DNA of 63,717 bases, filler included, from Nitrospirae bacterium CG2_30_53_67 (GTDB lineage Bacteria; CG2-30-53-67): assembly GCA_001873285.1 (NCBI GenBank). It is 6 parts of 6 records of this genome, joined end to end, with 100 filler letters (N's around TTAATTAATTAA, not from the genome) between each part and the next. Parts side by side here need not be neighbours in the genome. Positions count along the whole stretch, not along the records: positions 21,219 to 30,262 come from MNYV01000010.1; 5 more parts are not named here. One strand, given 5' to 3'. Shown here one piece after another: positions 1,288 through 44,974 of the stretch. Position 1 is the first letter of the stretch. Every line of letters begins with the position of its first letter. The position numbers were made by a program, and so were the translations under genes. The notes beneath the pieces are model-generated. The model was not told the DNA's origin. It worked only from the letters and a program-made list of their open reading frames with translations, and did no database searches.

Positions 1288-1453
1288 AGGGTTCATCTAG
1301 AAGATCACTCAGCCCATTGAACCCGTGAATAAGATACCCGACTGCGGAAACCTCGTCCATTCCCCTAAAGAGTTAAAAGTTAAATAATAACAACCATTTA
1401 GATTGCATAAGATACATACTTCGTGTTATGATAACAAAAAAAAGGAGGGACCT

Positions 1454-1849
1454 ATGGCCAATTTTAAGAAACTCCTGATCATGCTGCTCAACATGGATCT
1501 GGATAATACCCAGCAATTGTACACCCCTTTTTATCAGGCTGTTGCGGCCGCTTCGCTGAATTATGATGTCTCCATGGTCATCACCGCTGATGCCGGTCTG
1601 ATCTTGAAAAAGGGAGTGGCCGAAAAAATTTTTATTGAGCAGTCCTCCCATGGGGCTTCGGCAAGGGCACTCTATGAATTCATCCGGGACGCCCATAACG
1701 CAGGCGTGAAGATCTTTATCTGCAGCCCGAGTCTTGCCCACCATCAGATGACCCGAGATGATCTGATCCATGAATGCACCGACATCATCGGCAGCGCAAC
1801 CTATATCGAGATGGCCATGGATGAGGATACGCAGGTTCTGACCTATTAA
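1454..1849 (+). CDS. DsrE-family sulfur relay/peroxiredoxin-like protein
   Basis: RBS aaggagg before ATG 1454; pattern TPFYQAVAAASLNYDVSMV...GVKIFICSPSL; upstream promoter TTGCAT-18 nt-TATGAT. Confidence 0.7.
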   Translation: MANFKKLLIMLLNMDLDNTQQLYTPFYQAVAAASLNYDVSMVITADAGLILKKGVAEKIFIEQSSHGASARALYEFIRDAHNAGVKIFICSPSLAHHQMTRDDLIHECTDIIGSATYIEMAMDEDTQVLTY

Positions 1850-1940
1850 AGGAGAGGCATTCAAGGACTTCAAAGTTGAAGCTCTCCGCAACAAGCTGCG
1901 GGGAATCTTCGAATGATCAATCACTTCATCATTGTTTTTT

Positions 1941-4643: not shown

Positions 4644-4795
4644 CGAGTTCCTCCCCTATACAAGATATGTTGCTTTTCCCATCATGGTTTCCCCTGTTTG
4701 AAGTCGGATCTCATCAGATGGCCGGCAGGTGTGGTATCATCTGAGATCTGCACTATAAAACAAAACCGGGGCCAAGACAAGAAAAAATCAAGCGG

Positions 4796-6865
4796 TCATT
4801 CCACTACGATTTTTGAAAAATCGGCGATCCGTGAGACCATGGATGCAACGCGGGAGAGTAAAGCCAGGCGGTTATCGCGAATTTTCATGTCCTTGTCCAT
4901 GACCATCACCCCGTCAAAAAATGAATCGATGGCCTCCCGGAGGGAAGCGATCGTGGTCAAGGCTTCTCTATATTTTCCTTTCTGGATCAGATTCTTTACT
5001 TTCTTCTCGGTCTGCTGAACATCCTGGTAAAGCGACTTTTCGCTTTCGTGCTGGAGCAGCCCCTTCTCCACCGCACGGGTCTCGCTCCCTTTGATGATAT
5101 TCATGGCCCGCTTGCAGACCACGGTAAACGGTTCGAACATGGGTTCACCCCGGAATGCCGTTAGGGCATCTACCCTCGCCTTGGCATCAGGAAGGTGATC
5201 GAAACCCGCCTCCAGGACCGCTTCCACGGTATCGTACCGGTGGACGTCGGAGATGAGAAGACCCGAGAGCCTTCCCTTAAAATAATTCAGGATCGCCTTC
5301 CTGGTCCCTTCGAGATCCAAAGAGATATTCGGTCCGAGGAGCCGGAGCGCCTCGTCAATCATCTCCGAAAGGAGGACCGGATACCCTTTCTCCATCAGGA
5401 TGGCAAGAATGCCGAGGGTCTGCCGGCGAAGGGCATAAGGATCCTCGGACCCGGACGGGAGGAGTCCGATTCCGAAACACCCGGCGATGGTATCCATCTT
5501 ATCGGCCAGACTGATCAGGGCCCCCTCTTCGGACGAAGGGATGAGGTCGCCCGCAAAACGGGGGCGGTAGTGCTCGGACACGGCGAGGGCCGCCTGTTCC
5601 GATTCCCCGGAGAGGAGGGCATATTCACGTCCCATCTCTCCCTGCAGGGTGGGAAACTCCTTGACCATGGAAGTACAGAGATCGGCCTTGCATAACGATG
5701 CGGCCGTAGAGACCGGGACCGTATCCATGATTCCGATCTTTTTTGCCAGCCAGGCGGAAAGCGCGGCAATCCTCTCGGCCTTCTCAAACAGGGTCCCCAG
5801 CTTTTCCTGAAAGGTCACCCGTTTGAGATCCTCCACATAAGAGGAAAGCGGACGCCCGCAGTCGCTCTTGAAGAAGTAAAGGGCATCGGTCAACCTGGCA
5901 CGGAGGACCCGTTCGTTCCCGGAGATGATCATCCCCGCGTCCTTGGCCCGTGTATTGCTGACCGTGATGAAGTGCGGGAGGAGATCACCCGAGCTGCTCT
6001 CCAATGAAAAATACCTCTGGTGTTCCCGCATGGCGGTGATCAGGACCTGGCGGGGGAGCGAGAGGAAGCCGGGTTCAAAACTCCCGCAGAGCGCCGTGGG
6101 ATATTCGACCAGATAGATCACCTCTTCAAGGAGCTTTTCGTCCGGAATCACTCGCCCCCCCACTTCGCTCTCAATCTTCTGGATCTGTTTCAGGATCTCC
6201 TTCCTCCTATCTTCGGGGTCGAACATCAGAAAACGATCCTTGGAAGAGGCCTTGTAAGACTTGAAGCCGTGGACCGTACAAGAGCCAGGGCTCATGAAAC
6301 GATGCCCACGGGAGAGGTTCCCGCTCTTGATCCCGTCGAATTCAAAGGGGATCACCTCTTCATTGTACAGGGCGAGGATCCAGTGGATGGGCCTTGCAAA
6401 CCGAAGACTCCCGCTCCCCCAGCGCATGGACTTGGGAAAGTGGAGCGTGGTGATGATCTCGGGAAGGATCTTCTGCAAAACTTCCGGAGCGGGGAGACCG
6501 GGCTCTTTTTTTACGGCGCAAAGATATTCCCCCTTGGGCGTCTCCTGAATGGTCAGATCCTTGATGTCAACACCTTGGCCTCGCGCAAAGCCTACGGCCG
6601 CCTTAGTGGGGTTCCCCTCTGAGTCATAGGCCACCGACCGGGCAGGACCGAGGACCGTCAGGTTGAGATCCTCCTGCCGTTCGGGAAGCCCTTCTACATA
6701 AAGGATCAGTCTCCTGGGCGAGGCAAAGGTCAAAACCGAGCTGAAACCAAGGCGATGCTCCGTTAAAATCTTCTCGGTCAAGGTCTTCAATTCCGACATG
6801 GCCCCAGGTAAAAAGGCTGCGGGTATTTCCTCGGCGCCGATCTCCAGCAACAACTCCTTGCCCAT
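4796..6865 (-). CDS. glyS: Glycine-tRNA ligase beta subunit
   Basis: LLLEIGAEEIPA, FPKSMRWG, GSEDPYALRR; adjacent to glyQ. Confidence 0.97.
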   Translation of the reverse strand: MGKELLLEIGAEEIPAAFLPGAMSELKTLTEKILTEHRLGFSSVLTFASPRRLILYVEGLPERQEDLNLTVLGPARSVAYDSEGNPTKAAVGFARGQGVDIKDLTIQETPKGEYLCAVKKEPGLPAPEVLQKILPEIITTLHFPKSMRWGSGSLRFARPIHWILALYNEEVIPFEFDGIKSGNLSRGHRFMSPGSCTVHGFKSYKASSKDRFLMFDPEDRRKEILKQIQKIESEVGGRVIPDEKLLEEVIYLVEYPTALCGSFEPGFLSLPRQVLITAMREHQRYFSLESSSGDLLPHFITVSNTRAKDAGMIISGNERVLRARLTDALYFFKSDCGRPLSSYVEDLKRVTFQEKLGTLFEKAERIAALSAWLAKKIGIMDTVPVSTAASLCKADLCTSMVKEFPTLQGEMGREYALLSGESEQAALAVSEHYRPRFAGDLIPSSEEGALISLADKMDTIAGCFGIGLLPSGSEDPYALRRQTLGILAILMEKGYPVLLSEMIDEALRLLGPNISLDLEGTRKAILNYFKGRLSGLLISDVHRYDTVEAVLEAGFDHLPDAKARVDALTAFRGEPMFEPFTVVCKRAMNIIKGSETRAVEKGLLQHESEKSLYQDVQQTEKKVKNLIQKGKYREALTTIASLREAIDSFFDGVMVMDKDMKIRDNRLALLSRVASMVSRIADFSKIVVE

Positions 6866-6868
6866 GGC

Positions 6869-7798
6869 CTATAACCCCATATCCTCTTTTTTCGAAATCA
6901 TGTCCTGTTTCCTCTGATGAGGCTTCTGACGCTGCGGAAGAAGAGGGAACCCCTTTTCTTCACGCATGGCGAGATACCCTTTTGCACAGAGCCTGGCCAG
7001 GTTTCGAACCCTGGCGATGTAGCCGGTCCGTTCGGTCACGCTGATGGCGCCCCGGGCATCCAGCATGTTGAAGGCGTGCGAACACTTCAGACAATAATCA
7101 TAGGCGGGGAGAATCAGGCCTTCCTTGATGAGACGGTTCCCCTCCTTTTCAAAGATATCGAAGAGGTTAAAATGCATCCCGGAATCGGAGATCTCGAAGT
7201 TGTACCGGGAGAACTCAACCTCATCTTCATGGTGGATATCCCCATACGTGACCCCCTCCGCCCATTTCAGATCAAAGACATTGTCCACCTGCTGGAGGTA
7301 CATGGCCATCCGTTCCAGCCCGTAGGTGATCTCCACGGAAACCGGGGAAAGGTCGATCCCGCCCACCTGCTGGAAGTAGGTGAATTGCGTGATCTCCATG
7401 CCGTCGAGCCAGACCTCCCAGCCGAGGCCCCAAGCCCCCAGGGTCGGAGACTCCCAGTCGTCCTCGACAAAACGGATGTCATGCTGGAGGGGATCAACAC
7501 CAATCTCGACCAGGCTTCTGATATAGATATCCTGGATGTCCTTGGGTGAGGGCTTCATGATCACCTGGAACTGATAATAATGCTGCAGGCGGTTCGGGTT
7601 TTCTCCGTACCGGCCGTCCGTGGGTCTCCTTGAAGGTTCCACATAGGCGGCGTTCCAGGGTTCGGGACCCAGAACACGTAAAAATGTCGCAGGATTGAAG
7701 GTGCCGGCCCCGACTTCAATGTCATACCCCTGCTGGATGAGGCACCCCTTTTTCACCCAGTAATTCTGCAAGGACAGAATAAGTTCCTGAAATGTCAC
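6869..7798 (-). CDS. glyQ: Glycine-tRNA ligase alpha subunit
   Basis: [44 protein letters not shown]. Confidence 0.98.
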
Positions 7799-7838
7799 AA
7801 AAAACTCCGCTTTTAAGCTTAAGAAAAATAGGGGTCGT

Positions 7839-7867
7839 ATGTTAGCAAAGGAGGTTTATTTTGTCAA
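7839..7867 (-). promoter_or_regulatory. sigma70-type promoter for glyQS
   Basis: TTGACA-17 nt-TAACAT on the minus strand. Confidence 0.6.
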
Positions 7868-7940
7868 GAAAATCATCTTTGATTCAGCGATTCCGCAATC
7901 ACATCCAGGAAGGCAACAACAGTTGTTGTATTTTAAAAAC

Positions 7941-9488
7941 TTAACGGTCCGTACCGCCGAAATTCGCCTGGCAGTCGCCGTCACCGCCGTTGATGGTGAT
8001 GTCGGCATTCATGGCGGTATCGTAAGTCAAAGTCGAGACCACGGGAAGGCCGCAGGTGCCGTTGTTCGTGGTCCTCCGTTCAATAGTCTCACCCGGGTTC
8101 AACAAGATGACCGCCGTCGTGATCTCCGCGTTGTTATTGATGCGCCTGCACGCGCCGTCAATCCAGAAGTCTCTCCTTCCCCCCGTATTATTCCAGACCC
8201 GGTATCCGGCACAGCCGACATACGCGGAGGTCGAGCAGTTTCCGCTTCCGTAGGCATTGGTCACCGTCAGGGTAAACGAACTCAATGATGTCAAAGCAGC
8301 GGTGGTGCACGTTCCCGAGTTCGAGCTGACAAAGCTCGTGCAGGTGCCGCTCGAGGGCGCGAATACACCGTCCGCAGGACCGTTGGTGATGTTCCAGATC
8401 AGACTGGTCGTGCTGTTGTAATCCACGATGCCGGGGCTCGCGGTCAGGGTACAGGAGGGCGCACTTGGCGGATTGACCGTGACCGTGGCCGAACAATTAT
8501 TCGAGCCGTTCGTATTCGAAACCGTCAGGGTAAATGTCGTGGTTGCAACAAGGGCCGCCGTTGTGCACGTGCCGCCGTTGGAACTCGTGAAGTTTGAACA
8601 CCCACCGCTGACCGGAGCGAAGGCACCGTCCGCGGGACCGTTGGTGACGGCCCAGGTGAGGTCCGCGGTCTGTCCCGGGTTGATCGGCCCGGCCGGGCCC
8701 GTCAGGGTGCAGGTGGGCGCAGTCCCGCCGGAAGAAGCATTGACGCGCACAGAAAAACCTTTTGACGTGGTGGAACAGCTATCCGAAAGGACGGCTGCAA
8801 ACGGATAGTCCCCAGCCGATGCGCCCGGGGGACTCGCGCTGAGCACACCCGTGACCCCATCCACGCCCAACCATCCGGGATTGCCGGAGAGGCTCCAGGT
8901 GTAGGCATTCATGCCGCCGGTCCCGTTCAAGGTGGCAAAAATCGGAGCCGAAGCCCCCTCGGTTGTGGAGGGGAGATCCGAATTCGTGATCCTCAGGGTC
9001 TGGGGATAGACCAGGATGGAGAAATCCCTGACCGCCGTCTTTCCCTGGGCATCGGTCAGCGTGACATTAGTAATCCCTATGGTGTTGGAACAGGCGCCCA
9101 GCGTGCCGGAGGGGGTCGCGCTGGTATCAATGGTCCCGCTTATCGTGCCCGCAGTACTGAGCGAAAGGCCGCCGCTCCAGCTGATCGGTCCGGCCGGAGA
9201 CCATGGCTGATAAGGCAAGCATCCCCCATACCCCTCGATCTGGGCATTGTAGGCCGTATCCTCGGTCCCTTCAGGGAGCGTGGACGTCCGGATCGAAAGA
9301 GAGGAGCAGGAGAGTTCCTGCCTTAATCGGGAGAGATCCACATACTCGACGATGTCATCATACGTCGCGCCGTATTGCAGGATCTTAAACGTGGGCGCAG
9401 CGCCCGTCTCGTTCGCATGGTTTTCGCCCAAAGAAAGGATGACAAAGGCGGTTCCGGACTTGCAGCATGGATCGCCGGTCCCGCAGTC
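7941..9488 (-). CDS. Extracellular Ig-repeat protein (5' end lost at contig edge)
   Basis: Thr/Gly/Ser-rich; He_PIG-like units (LSIRTSTLPEGTEDTAYNAQIEGYGG; LRITNSDLPSTTEG) and two similar Cys-containing repeats (CTLT...TNGPADG.FAP..G.C..F.SSN.GTCTTAAL); frame open to the gap. Confidence 0.7.
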   Translation of the reverse strand, partial: DCGTGDPCCKSGTAFVILSLGENHANETGAAPTFKILQYGATYDDIVEYVDLSRLRQELSCSSLSIRTSTLPEGTEDTAYNAQIEGYGGCLPYQPWSPAGPISWSGGLSLSTAGTISGTIDTSATPSGTLGACSNTIGITNVTLTDAQGKTAVRDFSILVYPQTLRITNSDLPSTTEGASAPIFATLNGTGGMNAYTWSLSGNPGWLGVDGVTGVLSASPPGASAGDYPFAAVLSDSCSTTSKGFSVRVNASSGGTAPTCTLTGPAGPINPGQTADLTWAVTNGPADGAFAPVSGGCSNFTSSNGGTCTTAALVATTTFTLTVSNTNGSNNCSATVTVNPPSAPSCTLTASPGIVDYNSTTSLIWNITNGPADGVFAPSSGTCTSFVSSNSGTCTTAALTSLSSFTLTVTNAYGSGNCSTSAYVGCAGYRVWNNTGGRRDFWIDGACRRINNNAEITTAVILLNPGETIERRTTNNGTCGLPVVSTLTYDTAMNADITINGGDGDCQANFGGTDR

Positions 9489-9588
9489 NNNNNNNNNNNN
9501 NNNNNNNNNNNNNNNNNNNNNNNNNNNNNNNNTTAATTAATTAANNNNNNNNNNNNNNNNNNNNNNNNNNNNNNNNNNNNNNNNNNNN
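9489..9588. other. Artificial contig spacer (same spacer at 21119-21218, 30263-30362, 44875-44974, 55077-55176)
   Basis: N-run + TTAATTAATTAA (stops in all six frames) + N-run, 100 nt each. Confidence 0.97.
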
Positions 9589-21118: not shown

Positions 21119-21218
21119 NNNNNNNNNNNNNNNNNNNNNNNNNNNNNNNNNNNNNNNNNNNNTTAATTAATTAANNNNNNNNNNNNNNNNNNNNNNNNNN
21201 NNNNNNNNNNNNNNNNNN

Positions 21219-21373
21219 AGTGAAGTGCTAAAGACATAAGGGGCCGAGGGTCATAGGGTTCAAGGATTCCAGTGTTTTTCTCTGGAGATTTTGCTTGCGT
21301 TTAAGTATTTCACTTGACCCCTTGAACCCTGGAATCCTCGAACCCTTTTTACCCACTAAATGGGAGAAGAACC
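21219..21373. mobile_element. MITE-like repeat, copy B (cut by contig edge)
   Basis: Reverse-orientation core ggagattttgcttgcgtttaagtatttcac and end acccactaaatgggagaagaacc. Confidence 0.8.
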
Positions 21374-21395
21374 AGAAAAGAAGAGAAGTGAAGTG

Positions 21396-21779
21396 ATGGA
21401 AGCTTTATTATTAATCGGTCATGGAAGCCGGGCCGAGCAGGCCAATGAGGGGATGTTCCGGATCGCAGGGATGATCCGGAAGGCGGGTGGTTTCACCATT
21501 GTGGAGTGCGGCTTTCTTCAGCTCTGCCCTCCGACCATCGAAGATGCGGTGGAGCGCTGTATTGCTCAGGGTGCGGAAAGGGTCTTGATGGTCCCCTATT
21601 TTCTGCATACCGGAATTCACATCCGGGAGGATCTCCCGAGTGTGTTCGTGGAGTTGAAAAAACGGTTTCCGCATGTGGAGATGGCCATGGGCACGGAACT
21701 GGGGAACGACCCCCTGCTCGCCCAAGTGGTCATGAACCGGGTGGAAGAGATGCGAAACAGTCCATCCAAGGAGCAGTGA
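21396..21779 (+). CDS. cbiX: Sirohydrochlorin cobaltochelatase, short CbiX type
   Basis: LLIGHGSR, VPYFLHTGIHIREDLP; upstream of cbiC. Confidence 0.85.
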   Translation: MEALLLIGHGSRAEQANEGMFRIAGMIRKAGGFTIVECGFLQLCPPTIEDAVERCIAQGAERVLMVPYFLHTGIHIREDLPSVFVELKKRFPHVEMAMGTELGNDPLLAQVVMNRVEEMRNSPSKEQ

Positions 21780-22415
21780 ATGCAGATCAGGAGAGAAGGG
21801 CCTGCCATAGAGGCGGAGAGCTTCCGGATTATTGAACAGAAAATGGGTGAACATGGGTTCAGCCCCCTCGAGTTCCCTCTGGTCCGCCGGGTGGTCCATG
21901 CTACAGCGGATTTCGAGATCGGGTGTTCTTTGGTCTTTTCCGCAGGAGCGGTGCAGGCAGGGATGCAGTTGATCCGACGCGGGTGTCCGATCCTAACCGA
22001 TATCCGCATGGTGGCCTCGGGAATCTCCAGGGCGGCCCTGAAGAAGGCCGGCGGCGGGGAGGTCCTTTGCAGAATCGCCGACCCGGACGTCAGTGCCCAG
22101 TCCCAAGCCTCTGGAATGACCCGGTCCGCGGCCGCTGTCCGCTCCTTCGGTTCCCTTCTTACGGAGTCGATCCTGGTCATCGGGAATGCACCTACGGCGC
22201 TCCGGGAGGTCCTCCGCCTCAATCAGGAGGAAGGGATTGCTCCCGCGTTTCTGATCGCCGTCCCGGTCGGGTTTGTGGACGCTGCCGAATCCAAAGAGGC
22301 CCTGATGCAGACGGACCTTGCTTACATCACAAACCGCGGGAGAAAGGGCGGGACCCCTGTGGCCGTGGCCCTTGTGAACGCGTTATTAAAAATGGCGGAA
22401 GGGGGTGATACATGA
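21780..22415 (+). CDS. cbiC: Precorrin-8X/cobalt-precorrin-8 methylmutase
   Basis: IEAESFRII, RRVVHATADF, IGNAPTAL, PVGFVDAAESK, GRKGG. Confidence 0.95.
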   Translation: MQIRREGPAIEAESFRIIEQKMGEHGFSPLEFPLVRRVVHATADFEIGCSLVFSAGAVQAGMQLIRRGCPILTDIRMVASGISRAALKKAGGGEVLCRIADPDVSAQSQASGMTRSAAAVRSFGSLLTESILVIGNAPTALREVLRLNQEEGIAPAFLIAVPVGFVDAAESKEALMQTDLAYITNRGRKGGTPVAVALVNALLKMAEGGDT

Positions 22416-22429
22416 ACAGATAGATTGAA

Positions 22430-22600
22430 TCAGGCATAAGGTGTAAAGAATCAGGGAATGAAGAAGCGGAAAGAGGTGAAAATCCTCTGCTGTCACGCAG
22501 CCGTGAAGGGAACGAAAACCCAACTATAGCCACTGTCCTGAGCTTGTCGAAGGATGGGAAGGCGGGTGAGTAGGCAGCCCTGAGCCGGAAGACCTCTCAT
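22430..22600 (+). ncRNA. Cobalamin riboswitch
   Basis: aggtgaaaatcct...ctgtcacgcagccgtga...gccactg...gggaaggc...gagccggaagacct in canonical order, upstream of cobalt transport genes; boundaries approximate. Confidence 0.88.
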
Positions 22601-22629
22601 TCCCACAACCTCGATGGAAGGAGAAAAAT

Positions 22630-23388
22630 ATGTGTTTTAAGAGAACTGTTGCAATAATGGTTATATTTCTCTGGTCAGAGACAGCTTTTGCATCTCATCC
22701 GCTCATTACGGACGACACAGACACACAGGGAAAAGGAAAATTTCAACTCGAAGTCAATGGCGAGTATGCCCATGAAGACGAAGACGGCGTAACTGAGAAC
22801 GCCACCGAGATAGCGACAATGCTGTCTTATGGAATAGCAGACAACATAGACATTGTTTTGGGCATTCCCTACCAGGATATGAGGACAAAGGATCCGGGAA
22901 CTACGTCCGGAGAAAGCGGGATCGCGGATACCTCCCTTGAATTCAAGTGGCGATTCTACGAAAAGGATGGTCTGGGTTTTGCCTTGAAACCCGGCATGAC
23001 CATGCCAACGGGCGATGATGGAAAAGGTCTGGGTGCCGGAAAGGCAACGTATAGTTTGTTTTTCATTACCACACGGGAACTAAATCCATGGGCATTCCAC
23101 CTCAATCTCGGATACAGAAGAAATGAAAACAAGGTTGATGAACGAAATGACATATGGCATACATCTCTTGCCGCTGAAGTGGAGGTTATGAAGGATCTAA
23201 AGGTTGTTGGAAATATCGGGATAGAGAGAAATCCCGATAAGACATCCAATACACACCCTGCATTTATACTCGGCGGGCTGATCTATTCGATATCTAAAAG
23301 CATTGCCATTGATGCTGGTGTAAAGGGCGGGCTTAACAAGCCGGATACGGATCTAACCCTGCTTGCAGGAATAACCTTTAGATTTTAG
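22630..23388 (+). CDS. Putative outer-membrane beta-barrel transporter
   Basis: Signal peptide (AFA/SHPLITDD), alternating beta-strand pattern, C-terminal ...GITFRF. Confidence 0.7.
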   Translation: MCFKRTVAIMVIFLWSETAFASHPLITDDTDTQGKGKFQLEVNGEYAHEDEDGVTENATEIATMLSYGIADNIDIVLGIPYQDMRTKDPGTTSGESGIADTSLEFKWRFYEKDGLGFALKPGMTMPTGDDGKGLGAGKATYSLFFITTRELNPWAFHLNLGYRRNENKVDERNDIWHTSLAAEVEVMKDLKVVGNIGIERNPDKTSNTHPAFILGGLIYSISKSIAIDAGVKGGLNKPDTDLTLLAGITFRF

Positions 23389-23396
23389 GAGGCGCT

Positions 23397-24161
23397 ATGA
23401 AAATTAAAAGTTTAAAGTTAAAAGTTTTTATTCTTTCACTGTTCACTGTTCACTGTTCACTATTCACTGCCTCTGATGCTCATGCCATGCATATCTCAGA
23501 AGGGATATTGCCTTTCAACTGGGCATTGCTCTGGTCTCTGGTTGCAGTCCCTTTTGTGGCGTGGGGCTTGTATAAGCTCAAGAAACTATCGTCAATTGAC
23601 CTCTCATTCAAGCCTCTCGTCGGGTTAATGGCGGCTGTTGTATTCATCATTTCGTGCATGCCGATACCTGTGCCCACTGCAGGCACATGTTCCCATCCAT
23701 GCGGAACCGGGATCTCAGCGATCCTCCTTGGCCCTGCAATAAGCGTACTTATTTCATCAGTTGCCCTATTGATTCAGGCCCTATTTCTTGCCCACGGGGG
23801 TCTGACCACATGGGGCGCTAATATCGTGTCCATGGGCATCATGGGTTCCTTTGCAGGATATCTGACCTTCAGAGGATTGAGAGCGTTAAAAGCTAATCTT
23901 TGGATTGCAGGCTTCATGGCTGGTCTCTTTGCAGACTGGGCAACATATTTGACTACATCCGTTGAGCTCGCATCAGGCATAAAAGGAGATTCGCAGTTTC
24001 TGCCGCTTTTCTGGAAGATTCTTATTGCCTTTATCCCGACACAACTTCCATTGGGAATCCTTGAAGGGGCAATGACTGCAGGCATGGTGGTATTGCTTTA
24101 TAAAAAGAGGCCTGATTTGCTCGTAAAAATGAAGGTATTAAAACCAGAGGAGGCATTATGA
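23397..24161 (+). CDS. cbiM: ECF cobalt transporter substrate component
   Basis: Signal peptide then MHISEG; GTCSHPCG, LLIQALFLAHGGLTTWGAN, TQLPLGILEG. Confidence 0.93.
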   Translation: MKIKSLKLKVFILSLFTVHCSLFTASDAHAMHISEGILPFNWALLWSLVAVPFVAWGLYKLKKLSSIDLSFKPLVGLMAAVVFIISCMPIPVPTAGTCSHPCGTGISAILLGPAISVLISSVALLIQALFLAHGGLTTWGANIVSMGIMGSFAGYLTFRGLRALKANLWIAGFMAGLFADWATYLTTSVELASGIKGDSQFLPLFWKILIAFIPTQLPLGILEGAMTAGMVVLLYKKRPDLLVKMKVLKPEEAL

Positions 24162-24460
24162 AATTTCAAATTTCAAATTTCAAATTTCAAATTTTCTCCA
24201 TCATTTTTTTACTGTTTACTATTCACGGTTCACTATTCACTGACACTGTCACTGCCTCTGACAAATGGCCGGGCGTTGATGAGTCCGTCGTCGAAAAATA
24301 TGCAAAGGAGCAAGGCAGGGAGGCAAGGGAACCGTTCATAAATACGGATCAGGGCGACTTGCTTCTTTTTGTCTTTCTCCTCGCAGGCACAATCGGAGGC
24401 TTTACTGCAGGATATTACTGGAAGGAACTGGCAGTCAAAGGACAGCGGCATGATAGTTGA
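24158..24460 (+). CDS. CbiN-like small membrane component of the cobalt ECF transporter
   Basis: WPGVDESVVEKYA...DQGDLLLFVFLLAG..GGF..GY; lies between cbiM and cbiQ. Confidence 0.7.
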   Translation: MKFQISNFKFQIFSIIFLLFTIHGSLFTDTVTASDKWPGVDESVVEKYAKEQGREAREPFINTDQGDLLLFVFLLAGTIGGFTAGYYWKELAVKGQRHDS

Positions 24461-24494
24461 GAAAAAAAAGATTTTGAAGAGTTAAAGTTTAGTC

Positions 24495-24564
24495 TGTCAT
24501 TCCTGCGGAAGCAGGAATCCATGTTCATTAAATAGTCTGGATTTCCGCCTACGCGGGAATGACA
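24495..24564. repeat. REP-like double palindrome (related elements at ~17060-17130 and 32606-32636)
   Basis: tgtcattcctgcggaagcaggaatcc...ctggatttccgcctacgcgggaatgaca. Confidence 0.7.
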
Positions 24565-24577
24565 TAAAAGGATACCA

Positions 24578-25330
24578 ATGGAACTATTTTCAGAATACTT
24601 TAAAAAAGAGCAGCTCCTTTCAAAAGTTGATGCAAGGCTGAAACTTATTATAGCCCTCACTCTTCTGGGAATGATTTTAAGCTATAAGGGATTTACTCTT
24701 CCCCTGCTTGTGACAGCGCTTTGTTTATTGTTCTGTTTAAAGATGCGGATACCCTTAAAGATTTTTGCTCTCAGGTTTTCACAGCCATTGTTCATTATAT
24801 CGGTCTTGCTTATTCTAAAAGTATTCTTCTCTGGAGAAGGCATCCTGTTTTCCATCAACATCTTCGGCATCAAAGTTGTCGGACATAAAGACGGGTTCAT
24901 GGAAGGACTTATGATAGGAAGCAGAATCATAGGCGCAGTATCAGTCGTTGCAGTCATGGGATTCTCCACGCCGTTTACTGAATTCATGGCAGGCCTTTCA
25001 TGGCTGAGGGTTCCAAAGGGTTTTATAGAAATATTGATGTTTGCCTACAGATATATCTTTGTGCTTCTTGAAGATGCGATGGTCATTTACAATGCGCAGA
25101 AAAACCGCCTCGGCTACTCAAACATAAGGCGGGGATTGAGTTCATTCGGCACTCTGTCAGGCTCTTTGATTCTTAAGGCATTTGATCACAGCCGGAATAT
25201 TACTGTATCAATGATTCAAAGGGGCTATGACGGCAATATCCCCATGTTAAGACACAAGCCATTTAAGTCTTCTGAGATTATAGTTTCACTTCTATTTATC
25301 ATTGCCATGGGGGTTGTATGGAAGATTTAA
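24578..25330 (+). CDS. cbiQ: ECF cobalt transporter T component
   Basis: VDARLKL, FAYRYIFVL, AQKNRLGY, MIQRGYDG. Confidence 0.9.
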   Translation: MELFSEYFKKEQLLSKVDARLKLIIALTLLGMILSYKGFTLPLLVTALCLLFCLKMRIPLKIFALRFSQPLFIISVLLILKVFFSGEGILFSINIFGIKVVGHKDGFMEGLMIGSRIIGAVSVVAVMGFSTPFTEFMAGLSWLRVPKGFIEILMFAYRYIFVLLEDAMVIYNAQKNRLGYSNIRRGLSSFGTLSGSLILKAFDHSRNITVSMIQRGYDGNIPMLRHKPFKSSEIIVSLLFIIAMGVVWKI

Positions 25331-26289
25331 TCAGAATACAGAATGCAGAGCATATCCCCCCCGCCCATCCCTCCCCCTCGATGGGGGATGGTAAGGGAGA
25401 GGGTGAAAATTCGGATCCCGGACTCTGTGCTCTGGGTTCTGAGATAAGACTATCAGTCAAGATAGATTCCTTTAAATATCCGGATGGGACCGCAGCACTG
25501 TCCGATATAAGCTTTGAGACAAGAAGAGGCGAATTTATTGGAATACTGGGGGCAAATGGCTCAGGAAAGACGACCCTCTTAAAGATCATGGATGGGTTGA
25601 TGAAAGACTTTGAAGGCGGCGTCCACCTTGATGGTGTTAACATCAGGAAACTCTCTCCAAAGGAGATATATAAAAAGGTTGGTCTTGTCTTTCAAAACCC
25701 TGATGACCAGCTCTTTGCAACAACCCTTTTTGAGGATGCTGCCTTTGGTCCTATAAATATGGGGATCGGCACTAAAGAGGTTGAAATACGGGTCTTAACT
25801 GCCTTACAAGAGGTTGAACTTCAAGGGCTTGAAAAGAAATCCATCCATAACCTAAGCTTTGGGCAGAGGAAAAGGGCCTGCATCGCCGGGCTCCTTGCCA
25901 TGGGTCATGAAATTTTATTGCTCGATGAGCCGACTGCCGGGCTTGACCCCATGGGTGAATATAAGATGATGCGTCTTCTTAGAAAGCTTAATAAGGATAA
26001 TGGCGTAACGATCGTCATGGCCACCCACAGCGTTGACCTCGTCCCCTTGTTTCTTGACAGGCTGTATATTTTAAGCAAAGGTTATCTGGTAAGGGGCGGC
26101 ACTCCTGAAGATGTATTCACAGCGCCTGAGGAGATGTCAAATGTCAAGCTCAGGCTTCCTCAAATCGCCGAGCTGATTTACCGTCTCAAACATGAGGACA
26201 GTTTACCGTTTGAGAAAATCCCGCTCACCATCGGCGAGGCTCGAAGGGAGATCATAAAGATCATGCAGAATTCAAGATCCATGGTTTAA
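25318..26289 (+). CDS. cbiO: ECF cobalt transporter ATPase
   Basis: GANGSGKT, FQNPDDQLF, LSFGQ, LLDEPT. Confidence 0.9.
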   Translation: MEDLIRIQNAEHIPPAHPSPSMGDGKGEGENSDPGLCALGSEIRLSVKIDSFKYPDGTAALSDISFETRRGEFIGILGANGSGKTTLLKIMDGLMKDFEGGVHLDGVNIRKLSPKEIYKKVGLVFQNPDDQLFATTLFEDAAFGPINMGIGTKEVEIRVLTALQEVELQGLEKKSIHNLSFGQRKRACIAGLLAMGHEILLLDEPTAGLDPMGEYKMMRLLRKLNKDNGVTIVMATHSVDLVPLFLDRLYILSKGYLVRGGTPEDVFTAPEEMSNVKLRLPQIAELIYRLKHEDSLPFEKIPLTIGEARREIIKIMQNSRSMV

Positions 26290-26295
26290 ATTTTG

Positions 26296-26608
26296 GGATC
26301 ATCTCTAAAAGAGTGGGTGAAAACATCAGGGGTCAAGGGGTCCAGGATTCCAGGGGTCAAGTGAAGTGCTAAGAACATAAGGGGCCGAGGGTTATAGGGT
26401 TCCAGTGTTTTTCTCCGGAGATTTTGCTTGCGTTTCAGTATTTCACTTGAACCCTTGACCCCAAGATACGTTAGTGTAGTAGCCGTCGCAGACGGTCCCG
26501 GCCCGGCAAAAATAGATTCAAGGAGATGCCGGGATCTAACGACAAAAATAGAGAAAAGCGGGGCACGCGAAGCGTAACCCTTCTTACCCACTATGTGGGA
26601 GAAGAACC
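26296..26608. mobile_element. MITE-like repeat, copy C (nested insert at ~26460-26580)
   Basis: ggatcatctctaaaagagtgggt ... acccactatgtgggagaagaacc. Confidence 0.8.
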
Positions 26609-26636
26609 TATTTTACAAGAAAGGAGGTGAAAAGAT

Positions 26637-26789
26637 ATGACTAAAAAGACCAAAGCCGAGAATAAAAAAACCCGGAACAGCAAAAAGCCAAGCGCTGTCT
26701 CTTATCACCTGAAGTGCGCCAAGACAGCCAATGGGCTCACTCATTTTGTTATGTACGGCGATGTGCCGAAAAAGAAGATGCCTCTGTAG
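26637..26789 (+). CDS. 50-aa putative RiPP precursor peptide (CbpA-like)
   Basis: Strong RBS aaggaggtg; MTKKTKAENKKTRNSKKPSAVSYHLKCAKTANGLTHFVMYGDVPKKKMPL; upstream of a SPASM radical SAM gene; not in ORF track. Confidence 0.82.
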   Translation: MTKKTKAENKKTRNSKKPSAVSYHLKCAKTANGLTHFVMYGDVPKKKMPL

Positions 26790-26800
26790 AAAAAGTTTAA

Positions 26801-26832
26801 GCGGTTCAAGCGGGTTAAACCGCTTGAACCGC
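26801..26832 (+). promoter_or_regulatory. Perfect 13-bp stem-loop after the peptide gene (mRNA stabiliser or partial terminator)
   Basis: gcggttcaagcgg-gttaaa-ccgcttgaaccgc. Confidence 0.6.
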
Positions 26833-27029
26833 CAAAGTTGATATTAAGGTTCTCGTAATAGAAACGACATCATATCGAAAATCCCTCCTGACCTCCCTTT
26901 TTCAAAGGGAGGAATTCCCCCTCTTTGGAAAAGAGGGGCAAGGGGAGATTTTATGAACCATGTTCATTCTATTTCGAGACTATTAATAAGTTGCCTGAAC
27001 TATTTATTATAGGAAAGGAATTCAAACGC

Positions 27030-28367
27030 ATGAACAACAACAACCGCGTCATCTCTTTTTCCGACATTGATGCTGACTGGAAGCTGGCCCTTGATGCCGA
27101 CAATGTCTTCTGGGGGGTTATTCCGAAAAAGGTTGACGGCGCCTTTATGATGCCTGATGACCTGATAACTCTGTATCAGAAGGAGAGAGAGCATCTTGAC
27201 AAGGAGCTTTATGATTTCAGATTCAATGCGGATTTAAATTGCATATACATTGACCCTACCGACAGATGCAATGCCGACTGCCCTTACTGTTACATCCCGT
27301 CAAGGATAAGAAAAAAGGGCACACAGATGACAGGTGGAGAGCTTGATACCGTGTTGACAAAGATTGCCGCGCATTTCAAGACTTCATCCAAAAAACCGGT
27401 CATTGTCTTCCATGCTGCAGAACCGCTTCTGGTAAAAGGCATCCTGTTTAATGCAATAGACAGGTTCCACAAAGAACTTCTTTTCGGCATTCAGACCAAT
27501 GCTCTCCTTCTTGAAAAAGAGGATGTTGAGTTTATGAAAAAACACAGAATGGGCGTCGGCATATCCCTTGACGCCCCTGAAGCGGATATCAATAACGTTT
27601 CACGGGCAACGACAAGAGGAAACGGCAACTTTGAGAAAGCAGTGCAGGCCATAGACTGGTTTGACGGTTATGAGGGATTGAATGTCATTTCAACCGTCAC
27701 TAAATTCAATGTTCATAGACTTTCCGACCACGTGAGGTTTCTTCACAAGAAAAAGGTCCCCTGTGTGCTTCTCAATCCGGTAAGAGTGACAAGGAAGCCC
27801 GCATTGAAACTGAAACCGGACCAAAAGGTATTCGCGGAAAATCTCATGGACGCTGTTGATACGGCAATGGATTTATCAATAAAATCCGGACGGCAGATTG
27901 TTGTGGGGAACTTTTCCAACGTTATTCTCGCCATCATATCGCCGTCTGCCAGACGGATGATGTGTGATATTTCTCCATGCGGAGGCGGCCGTACCTTTCT
28001 CACGATCACGGCCGGCGGCGACATGGTCCCCTGCGGAGAATTTATCGGTTCCAAGGAATTTTCAGGCGGGAATATCTTTAATACGACGATTTCAAAGGCC
28101 ATAAACTCAAAACCTTTTAAGGAAATACGTTCAAGGACCGTGGAAAAGATTGAAGAATGTAATACCTGCGACTTCAGACATATATGCGGCTCGCCCTGCC
28201 CGGCTGAAATGCACGCCCGCGGCAATATGTACAAAAAGGCGGAGTTTTGTGATTTTTATAAAGAGATCATAAGGCATGCCTTTAAATTGATTGCTGAAGA
28301 CAAAGTTGAATATCTCCTGCGTAAAGATTCATTGGCACATATGCAATATGAGTATCAGTATAAATGA
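27030..28367 (+). CDS. Radical SAM/SPASM peptide-modifying enzyme (CbpB-like)
   Basis: CNADCPYC (CxxxCxxC); SPASM-type CDISPCGGG...PCGEF...CNTCDFRHICGSPCPAE...C; start set at MNNNNR after aggaaagg. Confidence 0.85.
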   Translation: MNNNNRVISFSDIDADWKLALDADNVFWGVIPKKVDGAFMMPDDLITLYQKEREHLDKELYDFRFNADLNCIYIDPTDRCNADCPYCYIPSRIRKKGTQMTGGELDTVLTKIAAHFKTSSKKPVIVFHAAEPLLVKGILFNAIDRFHKELLFGIQTNALLLEKEDVEFMKKHRMGVGISLDAPEADINNVSRATTRGNGNFEKAVQAIDWFDGYEGLNVISTVTKFNVHRLSDHVRFLHKKKVPCVLLNPVRVTRKPALKLKPDQKVFAENLMDAVDTAMDLSIKSGRQIVVGNFSNVILAIISPSARRMMCDISPCGGGRTFLTITAGGDMVPCGEFIGSKEFSGGNIFNTTISKAINSKPFKEIRSRTVEKIEECNTCDFRHICGSPCPAEMHARGNMYKKAEFCDFYKEIIRHAFKLIAEDKVEYLLRKDSLAHMQYEYQYK

Positions 28368-29488
28368 AAAATGATGAAGTCTCGGACAGGCCGCTCCGCA
28401 AAGGATACACCACAGGCGCCTGTGCCGCGGCCGCGGCCAAGAGCGCGGCACTGGTCCTGGTGACCGGGGTACCGGTCTACCGGATAGAGATTGATCTCCC
28501 CGCGGGAGGGTCGGTCGTGCTTCCGGTTAAGACCCTAAGGTGCGATGACCTGACGGCCTCCTGTTCCGTGGTCAAGGATGCGGGGGACGATCCGGACGTG
28601 ACCCACGGTGCGGAGATCATGGCCAGGGTCCGCAAAGCACCGGGCGAAGCGGATCAGAAAGGATATGAACTCACGATAGCGGGAGGTGAAGGGGTCGGCC
28701 GGGTGACCAAGCCGGGTCTCCCCATTGCGGTCGGGGAGTGGGCCATCAATCCGGTGCCCAGGTCCATGATTGCAAATGAAGTGACCCAGGTCTTGAGGCA
28801 CTTCTCAAAGAAGTGCCAGGGCGTCCGGTTTGAAGTGACCATTGAGGTGCCGGAAGGCAAAAACCTTGCTGAAAAGACCCTGAACCCCCGGCTGGGGATT
28901 CTGGGCGGGATCTCGATTCTGGGGACCACGGGGATCGTGGAGCCCCTCTCCCACAAGGCATGGGAAGAGACCATTGCCGCGCAGATCCAAGTGGCCGTGG
29001 CCTGCGGGAATCAAGCGGTGGTCCTGACTCCGGGCCGGTCCAGCGAGAAGGCGGCCGAGGCGCTCCTGCCGGGCCTTCCCTCGGAGGTCTTTGTACAGAT
29101 GGGGGACTTTGTGGGCGCATCTCTTCGGCTGTGTTCAGACCAGGGAGTTTCCGAGGTGACCGTGGTGGCCATGCCCGGCAAGATGTCCAAGATCGCCATG
29201 GGGTATGAGGACACGCATTACAAGGCCTCGGAATTGAGATTTGACGTTCTGGGTTCCTGGGCCGTGGGCCTCGGGATGGACGAAGGTTCTGTGCAGAGGG
29301 TCATTCATGCCAACACCAGCCGGGAGATCTGGGAAATCCTGCCTGAAGATTCACCTCTGTATAATGAGATCTGCCGTCGGGCCAGGGAGAGCTGTGAATC
29401 CCTCTCGAGCGGCAAGGTCAGGGTAAAGACCGTGCTGATCGGATACGACGGGAAGGTGCTGGCGGACACGATGGGATTTGAGATTTGA
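28364..29488 (+). CDS. cbiD: Cobalt-precorrin-5B C1-methyltransferase
   Basis: LRKGYTTGACAAAA, KDAGDDPDVTHG, NPRLGILGGISILGTTGIV. Confidence 0.96.
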   Translation: MKNDEVSDRPLRKGYTTGACAAAAAKSAALVLVTGVPVYRIEIDLPAGGSVVLPVKTLRCDDLTASCSVVKDAGDDPDVTHGAEIMARVRKAPGEADQKGYELTIAGGEGVGRVTKPGLPIAVGEWAINPVPRSMIANEVTQVLRHFSKKCQGVRFEVTIEVPEGKNLAEKTLNPRLGILGGISILGTTGIVEPLSHKAWEETIAAQIQVAVACGNQAVVLTPGRSSEKAAEALLPGLPSEVFVQMGDFVGASLRLCSDQGVSEVTVVAMPGKMSKIAMGYEDTHYKASELRFDVLGSWAVGLGMDEGSVQRVIHANTSREIWEILPEDSPLYNEICRRARESCESLSSGKVRVKTVLIGYDGKVLADTMGFEI

Positions 29489-29549
29489 AATTTTAAATTT
29501 GAGATAAGGGATTTGTGATGTCAAATTTCAAATCTTAAATTTCAAATCG
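29472..29549. repeat. Inverted heptamer arrays (gatttga/aaatttc type)
   Basis: gatttgagatttgaaattttaaatttgagat ... tcaaatttcaaatcttaaatttcaaatc. Confidence 0.7.
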
Positions 29550-29567
29550 CCCAAAGAGCGGAGCAAA

Positions 29568-30262
29568 ATGAGACCAGGAAAGAGACTCCATCCGATCCAG
29601 ATCATAGGTGTGGGACTCAAGGGACCGGAGGGGCTGTGTCCCGAGGTGCTGGATCGAATCCAACAGGCGGACCTGCTGGTCGGTGGGAGAAAGATCCTGC
29701 AGGGTTTCAGGGGATTCCCCGGCCAGAGGTTTTCGCTGGATGGGCATCTCAAGGGGCTTGACAGCAAGATCCATCATGCCGTCAAACTCGGGAAGAGGGT
29801 GGTGGTGCTGACCTCGGGCGATCCCAATTTCTTCGGGATTGCGAGGTTCCTTTTCAAGTCTTTCCGGCCTGAAGAGATGGAGATCCATCCCCATGTGAGC
29901 TCCATGCAGCTCGCCTTTGCACGGGTCCGGATCCCCTGGGACGATGCGGCTTTTGCCTCGGCCCATGGACGGGATCTCCTCTCGGTGATTCATACGGTCA
30001 GGAGCCGCACCAAGGTGGCCGTGCTCACGGATCCGAAGAACCATCCGTCGCGGATCGCGAGGGCCTTGCTGAAAGCCGGTCTTCCGGACACGACGGTCTA
30101 TGTCTGCAGCCGGTTGGGAGGACCGGATGAGAAGGTCTGGCAGGGGAACCTCTCTTCACTGACCGGGAAGCGGTTTCCCGATCTGAACGTGATGATTATC
30201 CTGAACGACCGGGCCGGGGAGGAGGGATTCGGGATCCCGGATCATGTCTTGGCCCCCGACAA
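29568..30262 (+). CDS. cbiE: Precorrin-6Y C5,15-methyltransferase (CbiE or CbiET), 3' truncated by gap
   Basis: IIGVG, LTSGDPNFFGI, HVSSMQLAFAR, SAHGR, VLTD. Confidence 0.88.
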
Positions 30263-30420
30263 NNNNNNNNNNNNNNNNNNNNNNNNNNNNNNNNNNNNNN
30301 NNNNNNTTAATTAATTAANNNNNNNNNNNNNNNNNNNNNNNNNNNNNNNNNNNNNNNNNNNNCAGAAAGAATCACGACCAACCTTAAGAATCGAAGAAGA
30401 AAAAGGCGAAGAAAAAAGGC

Positions 30421-44874: not shown

Positions 44875-44974
44875 NNNNNNNNNNNNNNNNNNNNNNNNNN
44901 NNNNNNNNNNNNNNNNNNTTAATTAATTAANNNNNNNNNNNNNNNNNNNNNNNNNNNNNNNNNNNNNNNNNNNN

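Follow-up and report, generated by a model that had tools for sequence, protein, structure and literature searches.

The biosynthesis of vitamin B12 is often treated as enzymatically solved. What, then, is a gene for a 50-residue peptide, followed by a gene for a radical S-adenosylmethionine (SAM) enzyme of the SPASM type, doing in the middle of an operon for cobalt uptake and B12 (cobalamin) synthesis? The two genes lie in a 63,717-nucleotide stretch of DNA (the window) from Nitrospirae bacterium CG2_30_53_67 (assembly GCA_001873285.1), in which several contigs of a metagenome-assembled genome (MAG) are joined by spacers of the form N44-TTAATTAATTAA-N44. Their own contig is 9044 bp long (MNYV01000010.1, window positions 21219-30262) and is the sole part of the window physically linked to the finding. 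Taken together, the evidence is best explained by a CbpA-type peptide and its CbpB maturase that probably serve as a cytoplasmic accessory of cobalamin metabolism.

The initial annotation had proposed that a small, unannotated open reading frame (ORF) behind a strong ribosome-binding site encodes a peptide. Judged by its homologues, its conserved position and its codon pattern, this ORF is a real gene. It runs from an ATG start to a TAG stop and encodes 50 residues, including the segment YHLKCAKTANGLTHFVMY, with seven lysines among residues 1-19, one cysteine and two histidines. A small-protein search returned 185 homologues, mainly from Nitrospirota-type MAGs and all unnamed or called 'hypothetical', and an alignment of 38 sequences showed a variable N-terminus (Lys-rich in the present peptide) and a near-invariant core, SYHLKCAKTANGLTHFVMYGD, the residues K26, C27, T30, N32, G33, L34, H36, F37, V38, M39, Y40, G41 and D42 being identical throughout. 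Over 71 loci, the core had a nucleotide entropy of 0.27 at the first, 0.16 at the second and 1.32 at the third codon position, and codon differences were synonymous in 24465 cases versus 7116 nonsynonymous, the pattern expected of a sequence that is translated and kept under purifying selection. Among 1.84 billion representative proteins, a profile search found 21 at E ≤ 0.001, some of them with acidic rather than basic N-termini and all retaining R-x-x-C-x5/6-G-L-[ST]-H-[YF]. The peptide belongs to no Pfam or NCBIfam family, has no sequence match in the PDB at E ≤ 10 and retrieved only unnamed clusters from the ESM Atlas, and a search for longer or fused forms gave a single 90-residue protein, probably a mis-started ORF. 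Among the representative proteins, one of 102 residues (P0253) combines the CbpA core with a ferredoxin domain of the 2Fe-2S type (Pfam Fer2, 34 bits); it may be a genuine fusion or may have arisen as an artefact of gene calling. A metatranscriptome run contained only assembled fragments, ∼96% identical, over cbiO, the 3′ part of cbpB, cbiD and cbiE, with the peptide ORF essentially uncovered in contigs that cannot rank expression or show transcript ends.

The downstream gene, starting with an ATG at 27030, encodes CbpB, its match to TIGR04163 being at equivalog level: the score is 496.1 bits where 375 are required (E 7.4e-149), and the alignment spans positions 10-426 of the 428 in the model. 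The next NCBIfam family, DynA, scored 123 bits, and many homologues of the enzyme are already named CbpB in public records. The sequence contains the motif C80-x3-C84-x2-C87 and matches Pfam Radical_SAM (50 bits) and SPASM (38.4 bits), the only domains that Pfam detected, with no PqqD-type domain among them, the N-terminal residues 1-46 being modelled at low confidence. Besides C80, C84 and C87, eight cysteines of the SPASM region (C312, C317, C335, C377, C380, C386, C390 and C407) are invariant in 13 homologues. The nearest solved enzyme by sequence is CteB (PDB 5wgg, 86.7 bits), followed by ChlB and anSME, and the nearest by fold in a Foldseek search is anSME (PDB 4k36-4k39, E 5e-15, template-modelling score 0.64-0.74), followed by ChlB, CteB, TigE, SkfB and SuiB, all of these closest relatives being peptide- or protein-modifying SPASM enzymes. 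With a mean predicted local distance difference test (pLDDT) score of 64 and an N-terminus below 50, the CbpB model supports assignment of the fold class, not of the active-site geometry.

Conservation of the peptide beside homologues of the enzyme was a check set beforehand. When one genome per species was scanned, at least 564 enzyme relatives came to light, from which 80 loci (designated L below) were kept, spanning Nitrospirota, Omnitrophota, Planctomycetota, Firestonebacteria, Hydrogenedentota, Bacillota and Deltaproteobacteria. A profile of the peptide picked out a homologue directly 5′ of the enzyme gene, in the same orientation, at 75 of these 80 loci. Four of the five loci lacking a match have <320 nt of upstream sequence; the fifth, L051, has ∼3 kb, and no recognizable peptide was found in the 780 nt read. 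In the window, 240 nt separate the peptide stop from the start of cbpB on the same strand. We also predicted the structure of the enzyme in complex with SAM, three 4Fe-4S clusters and the peptide, which scored 0.90, the best of three controls scoring 0.02. The 0.90 mark is reached by 116 of 157 solved complexes and by 2 of 215 mismatched pairs, although solved maturase-peptide complexes exist (9gm3, 5v1t) and the pass may in part reflect likeness to them. The runs shared at least 47% of contacts with peptide pLDDT of at least 47, and the contacts predicted with confidence link residues 17-30 of the peptide to residues 16, 27-32, 42-56, 303-307, 421-424 and 437-445 of the enzyme. Peptide residues 20-25 are modelled against enzyme residues 27-31 and the helix 42-56, predicted contacts that resemble leader binding in other maturases. 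On these grounds the two genes are very probably a cbpA-cbpB pair.

The initial annotation had likened the genes to the CbpA/CbpB system (TIGR04164, 'modified peptide precursor CbpA', and TIGR04163, 'peptide-modifying radical SAM enzyme CbpB'). For the enzyme, the score given above bears this out, and the peptide lies directly upstream of it as expected of such a pair; for the peptide, the likeness holds in kind, through its core, and not by score. TIGR04164 is a 25-position model with a curated cut-off of 35 bits, and it gave no match at E ≤ 10 either to the peptide or in a six-frame search of its genome. Among the 38 aligned family members it matched nine, with a best E of 0.0072, and among 20 diverse relatives it matched 15 at 12.3-26.9 bits, in both sets always on the same core and always under the cut-off. 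The peptide core, C27-AKTAN-G33-L-T-H36-F37, nevertheless fits C-x5-G-L-[ST]-H-[FY]. At the two loci with the highest-scoring CbpB enzymes (667 and 687 bits), the peptides encoded upstream have 35 residues and the common motif C-x5-G-L-[SA]-H-Y-I-L; these canonical forms have the core C-x5-G-L-[STA]-H-[YF] in common with the present family, and differ from it in length (35 versus 50 residues) and in the invariant MYGD-VPKKKMPL tail added here. Of the candidate ligands only the Cys, the His and the aromatic residue after the His are shared with canonical CbpA, Met39 and Tyr40 not being so. By its TIGR04164 score the peptide is not a member; by core motif, position and partner it is CbpA-like, and it would appear to represent a longer, divergent CbpA branch beyond the reach of the curated model. 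Since that model misses the commonest peptide subfamily seen, annotation of such loci shows an orphan maturase with the peptide left 'hypothetical' or uncalled.

Between the two genes the initial annotation had placed a hairpin, which is present (−26.9 kcal/mol, z = −6.08, with none of 200 shuffled sequences as stable) and has counterparts elsewhere in the family. Of 76 cases, namely the window and 75 loci, 57 reach −20 kcal/mol or lower over the 70 nt after the peptide stop, compared with 16% of 313 control gene ends from the same loci (Mann-Whitney p 1e-21), a contrast somewhat inflated by the fact that most controls extend into the coding sequence that comes next. As the stem sequences are not alike between loci, it is structure rather than sequence that is conserved. 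There is no U-tract on the plus strand (a T-run occurs on the minus strand only), and the hairpin is thus not a canonical terminator; it is more likely an attenuator or 3′ stabilizer than a full terminator. Scans for promoters and terminators gave no excess of sites over shuffled sequence. The other features listed in the initial annotation (the ORF and its ribosome-binding site, the CxxxCxxC motif with SPASM domain, and an ATGA overlap between cbpB and cbiD) are likewise all found in the sequence.

Two repeats flank the peptide gene (Table 1). The first, a 318-nt block rich in GGGGTCAAGG / CCTTGACCCC-type arms, is missing from a 96%-identical sister genome (L009), where the gap between cbiO and the peptide gene is ∼27 nt. 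Pieces of the block occur at dozens of places in the organism's own genome, and the depth in DNA runs over the repeats was 1400-8600 versus ∼30 in their flanks; the block looks like a recently mobile miniature element. The second, containing two nested hairpins, is copied on two other contigs of the genome (C122 and C40) and is also present in L009, there with 28 additional bases after 26887.

The genes around the pair point to cobalamin. At least one cobalamin-specific gene was present in 75 of the 80 loci, and six of the ten loci tested have a cobalamin riboswitch upstream in the same orientation, as does the window, where cbiM, cbiQ and cbiO stand between the riboswitch and the peptide gene and the TGA stop of cbpB (28365-28367) shares bases with the ATG of cbiD (28364) as ATGA. 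Over the 80 loci, the nearest upstream genes were most often CbiO (28) and CbiB (15), then CobS (4), CobU (4) and CobQ (3), and the nearest downstream genes CbiD (18), BtuR (9), CobT (8) and CbiA (7). The pair follows cbiO and precedes cbiD in the clade to which the window belongs, a single Nitrospirota-type clade of close relatives that supplies most of the cbiO adjacency. In Omnitrophota and Planctomycetota it is found between cbiB or cobD and cbiA-cbiX-cbiC, and elsewhere between cobC-cobU and cobT-cobS, before the adenosyltransferase gene btuR, or after cbiG/cbiH. At the canonical locus L090 the pair accompanies a salvage cluster of CbiZ, BtuF, BtuC and BtuD without cobalt genes, and a compact CbiX-cbpA-cbpB-CbiE module recurs in L027, L091, L092 and L094, three of the four being from genomes with no CbiC or CbiD match. 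These varied positions, together with salvage clusters that lack cobalt genes, link the pair to B12 metabolism generally and not to cobalt uptake alone.

CbpB was found in 39 of 151 genomes of one class; CbiC accompanies it in 31 of these 39, whereas CbiC and CbiD are both missing from 8. We conclude that the pair is an accessory of cobalamin metabolism in general, neither essential nor restricted to cobalt uptake. In the organism's own phylum, where 12 genomes passed the completeness filter, CbpB occurs only in two of its own genus, a distribution that suggests lateral acquisition of the cbi-cbpAB block from a donor of Nitrospirota type.

Two ideas in which CbpAB stands in for an absent enzyme were set aside. 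CbiJ (PF02571) was not found in the organism's genome (95% complete) nor in five other CbpB-bearing genomes. In the class sample it is present in 14 of 77 CbiD-positive genomes: 1 of 26 that have CbpB as well and 13 of 51 that do not (Fisher p = 0.027, for genomes that are related and not independent). The proposal that CbpAB replaces this missing reductase is unsupported, as absence of CbiJ does not track CbpB, 38 of the 77 genomes having neither. Replacement of CbiD, which was not found in 23 of 98 CbiC-positive genomes of the sample, was rejected, as CbpB is present in only 5 of those 23. Either divergent forms of CbiJ and CbiD escape the models or unknown enzymes carry out these steps in this group.

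How might the pair work? We envisage cbpA and cbpB being transcribed within a riboswitch-led string comprising a putative outer-membrane channel, cbiMNQO, cbpA, cbpB, cbiD and cbiE, and co-transcription of this kind implies that scarcity of B12 should switch the pair on. Peptide mRNA probably exceeds enzyme mRNA by virtue of the hairpin between the two genes. In the predicted complex, CbpB grips the strand [IV]-S-Y-[HR]-[LM]-K just before the Cys by means of its N-terminal ∼60 residues and its C-terminal tail. The enzyme would then make a radical-mediated change within the core C-x5-G-L-[ST]-H-[FY], most likely an intramolecular cross-link. A thioether from Cys27 comes a little short of an even chance, and a carbon-carbon or carbon-nitrogen link to His36 or Phe37 is a less likely but serious candidate, other chemistries making up the remainder. 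The translated peptide has no signal sequence, and among the genes of the 9-kb contig, whose ends fall short of further flanking genes, there is no protease, peptidase or exporter, as the initial annotation had also noted; the product is most likely cytoplasmic.

As to what the product does, the role we prefer is binding of cobalt-corrin intermediates or corrinoids through Cys27 and His36, a corrinoid-level role that we put forward tentatively and favour over one confined to Co(II) because late-step and salvage genes, too, are found in the company of the pair. Stated more broadly, matured CbpA may be a cytoplasmic carrier or chaperone of the anaerobic B12 pathway, a cross-linked peptide with cobalt ligated by Cys and His, either free or within a corrin, and this too is a possible rather than a probable account; such a peptide would protect labile cobalt-corrin intermediates or hand them over between enzymes. 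The initial annotation had a narrower proposal, a cobalt chelator or chaperone for CbiMNQO or CbiX, in which the matured peptide takes up Co2+ from the transporter and passes it to the CbiX chelatase. We know of no cobalt chaperone for the anaerobic route, the peptide gene directly follows cbiO in the window and in 28 of the 80 loci, and Cys27, His36, Met39 and Asp42 are possible ligands in the core. Yet the cbiO adjacency reflects mostly one clade, loci of Omnitrophota, Planctomycetota and others place the pair among late-step or nucleotide-loop genes, L090 combines it with corrinoid salvage and uptake genes only, and Met39 and Tyr40 are not common to canonical CbpA. Across these varied contexts the proposal is not specifically supported, and we regard it as rather unlikely; the CbiX-cbpA-cbpB-CbiE module at four loci keeps the link to the chelatase plausible. 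If the peptide did deliver cobalt to the chelatase, it would be a functional analogue of CobW, the G3E GTPase that acts as GTP-dependent cobalt chaperone of the aerobic B12 route, to which it has no sequence or mechanistic relation.

Three further roles are less credible than these. The extreme conservation of the core across phyla and the lack of an exporter are what is seen with precursors of cofactors, and a redox cofactor or electron mediator for a reductive step of anaerobic B12 synthesis, made in the manner of pyrroloquinoline quinone (PQQ) or mycofactocin, would also fit the joining of Fer2 to the CbpA core in P0253 and the failure to find CbiJ in this genome and five other CbpB-bearing ones. 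However, neither a peptidase nor any other tailoring enzyme is encoded in the operon, the fusion is known from one unconfirmed record and the CbiJ pattern fails as described above, making this improbable. Most characterized radical SAM-modified peptides are exported, and genes for TonB-dependent receptors lie directly 3′ of cbpB in L021, L032 and L058, as they might if the peptide were secreted to bind cobalt or corrinoids, or served as an antimicrobial or signal; in L032 and L058, though, the receptor gene has a separate riboswitch before it, as ordinary B12 uptake genes do, and with neither a signal sequence on the peptide nor a transporter-peptidase on the contig, and core conservation far above that usual for antimicrobial peptides, an exported product seems very improbable. 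Lastly, CbpB could act on a cobalt-tetrapyrrole like the SPASM enzymes AhbD and NirJ, with the peptide as scaffold or regulator and not as substrate. The tetrapyrrole-pathway setting, the translational coupling of cbpB to cbiD and a match, if a weak one, to AhbD (58 bits, the model having a cut-off of 500) are in keeping with this, but the matches to peptide maturases are far stronger (103-123 bits), the nearest structures all act on peptides or proteins and the predicted peptide-enzyme interface is a confident one, so that we give this reading hardly any credence.

Several observations weigh against the account we prefer, beyond the likeness of the predicted complex to solved ones, the inflated hairpin contrast and the missing U-tract. 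In the relative L060 a Gly stands where the Cys should be, and the MYGD segment is missing from L060, L086 and L088. L071 and L089 hold the pair without B12 genes nearby, and 69 of 100 CbiC- or CbiD-positive genomes of the 151-genome sample have no CbpB, making the pair dispensable for the pathway. In the present genome the 318-nt insertion could uncouple the peptide gene from the riboswitch. Confidence in the predicted complex is limited to peptide residues 17-30, such that the residue facing SAM is not shown and the fold of the peptide is uncertain. CteB, which forms thioethers, reportedly has an open auxiliary cluster site, whereas the eight SPASM-region cysteines of CbpB suffice for two fully ligated clusters and do not imply a site of that type. 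Both the chemistry and the site of modification are guesses, and the case for a corrinoid-level role is made from gene neighbourhood only.

Comparison with better-known systems places the pair among, and apart from, several of them. SCIFF is a highly conserved short peptide with no dedicated exporter or protease and no assigned cellular role, in all of which it resembles the CbpA pair, and its maturase CteB (PDB 5wgg/5why) is the closest solved relative by sequence. SCIFF has six cysteines, however, compared with one here, the gene context of the present pair is B12 metabolism and the SCIFF maturase model TIGR03974 scores CbpB at 79.5 bits against a cut-off of 425. anSME has two fully ligated auxiliary clusters, for which CbpB has cysteines enough, and is its best structural match; yet with the anSME model TIGR03942 (cut-off 349) CbpB scores 114.9 bits, no gene for a sulfatase lies close by and the sulfatase motif, C/S-x-P/A-x-R, does not occur around Cys27 of the peptide. 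PqqA/PqqE and MftA/MftC likewise combine a small conserved precursor with an adjacent radical SAM/SPASM enzyme and, as is likely here, an intracellular product within one metabolic area. PQQ and mycofactocin operons include a separate PqqD-type binding protein and a peptidase, neither of which is encoded on this contig.

The remaining features of the contig, on which every gene is on the plus strand, are collected in Table 1. The best NCBIfam match of cbiX is a nickelochelatase subfamily (85.9 bits, under its cut-off of 120), and the small protein in the cbiN position matched no family in Pfam and NCBIfam searches. Genes for ArsR, ArsC, Acr3 and a P-type ATPase (metal efflux) after 30363 belong to another contig and are unlinked to the cbi operon.

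Table 1. Positions of the pair, its neighbours and the associated non-coding elements in the window, with the spacers and two canonical CbpA peptides from other loci
Feature	Position	Strand	Evidence or remark
N spacers	9489-9588, 21119-21218, 30263-30362, 44875-44974, 55077-55176		Gene neighbourhood not readable across them
cbiX (small sirohydrochlorin chelatase)	21360..21779	+	Pfam CbiX 99.2 bits; first gene of the contig, 5′ of the riboswitch
cbiC (cobalt-precorrin-8 methylmutase)	21780..22415	+	Pfam CbiC 243.5 bits
Cobalamin riboswitch aptamer	22430..22615	+	Rfam RF00174, 69.1 bits (gathering threshold 31.5), E 1.6e-15, full length 1-189
Outer-membrane beta-barrel (PF13557)	22630..23388	+	Pfam Phenol_MetA_deg 83.8 bits; first gene after the riboswitch
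cbiM (energy-coupling factor (ECF) cobalt transporter S component)	23397..24161	+	TIGR00123 188.9 bits (cut-off 184.15); Pfam CbiM 190.2 bits
Small membrane protein in cbiN position	24158..24460	+	Two hydrophobic segments in translation; place kept in related loci
cbiQ (ECF T component)	24578..25330	+	TIGR02454 143 bits (cut-off 111.8)
cbiO-type ECF ATPase	25318..26289	+	Pfam ABC_tran 106 bits; top NCBIfam models are cobalt/ECF ATPases, all under equivalog cut-offs
Multi-copy repeat block, 318 nt	26291..26608	.	Between cbiO stop and peptide ribosome-binding site
Shine-Dalgarno AGGAGG	26622..26627	+	9 nt 5′ of the peptide ATG, read from sequence
cbpA-like precursor peptide gene, 50 residues	26637..26789	+	Homologues, conserved core, codon pattern
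Perfect 13-bp hairpin	26801-26813/26820-26832	+	6-nt loop, 11 nt after the peptide stop
Second repeat, two nested hairpins	26842..26989	.	Between peptide hairpin and cbpB
cbpB, radical SAM/SPASM peptide maturase, 445 residues	27030..28367	+	TIGR04163 496.1 bits (cut-off 375)
cbiD (cobalt-precorrin-5B C1-methyltransferase)	28364..29488	+	TIGR00312 415.8 bits (cut-off 200)
cbiE, truncated by contig end	29568..30262	+	TIGR02467 197 bits (cut-off 92.9); N spacer from 30263
Canonical CbpA peptides	L089 6505-6612; L090 1271-1378		Beside the highest-scoring CbpB enzymes

A PF13557 beta-barrel gene stands between the cobalamin riboswitch and cbiM in the window, in 9 of the 80 related loci and in two distant phyla (L048, 11362-12384; L084, 11080-12039); its product is a candidate outer-membrane cobalt channel. 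Other neighbours were noted at individual loci. In L090 (324-3541), an asparagine-synthase-like gene whose end overlaps the start of cbpA is accompanied by a diphthamide-synthase-like PP-loop gene, with cbiZ, a further two radical SAM genes and btuFCD coming after them; the PP-loop gene is also found 3′ of cbpB in L053 (8257-8922). It is possible that these asparagine-synthase-like and PP-loop genes, both absent from the window, encode extra tailoring enzymes. The pair occurs with two U32 peptidase genes and an ABC1 kinase gene in L071 (3567-11272), and in L089 (4365-9455) it has an M3 oligopeptidase gene upstream and a flagellin gene downstream. An unannotated protein of 430-490 residues is encoded between a cbiG-cbiH fusion and cbpA in L020 (5105-6583) and L058 (4109-5395), with a weak Pfam match to BPL_N (amidotransferase-like) and no NCBIfam family.

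A full-text literature search, which did not cover the supplements of large surveys of radical SAM-modified peptides, found no characterization of CbpA or CbpB. That the family exists is already known, since it is named in NCBIfam; new here are the finding that a common peptide subfamily escapes the curated model, the survey of gene context across phyla, the recurrent hairpin and the predicted binding mode. A rebuilt CbpA model would correct the annotation of many such loci. A peptide and radical SAM enzyme pair is found in B12 operons, under B12 riboswitches, and the enzyme has relatives in at least 564 species-level genomes. If the product of the pair does handle cobalt or corrinoids, it would give the anaerobic pathway a component of a new kind and the modified peptides a new functional class, and, should the carrier or chaperone role prove true, matured CbpA would be the first peptide-derived accessory factor of cobalamin biosynthesis.

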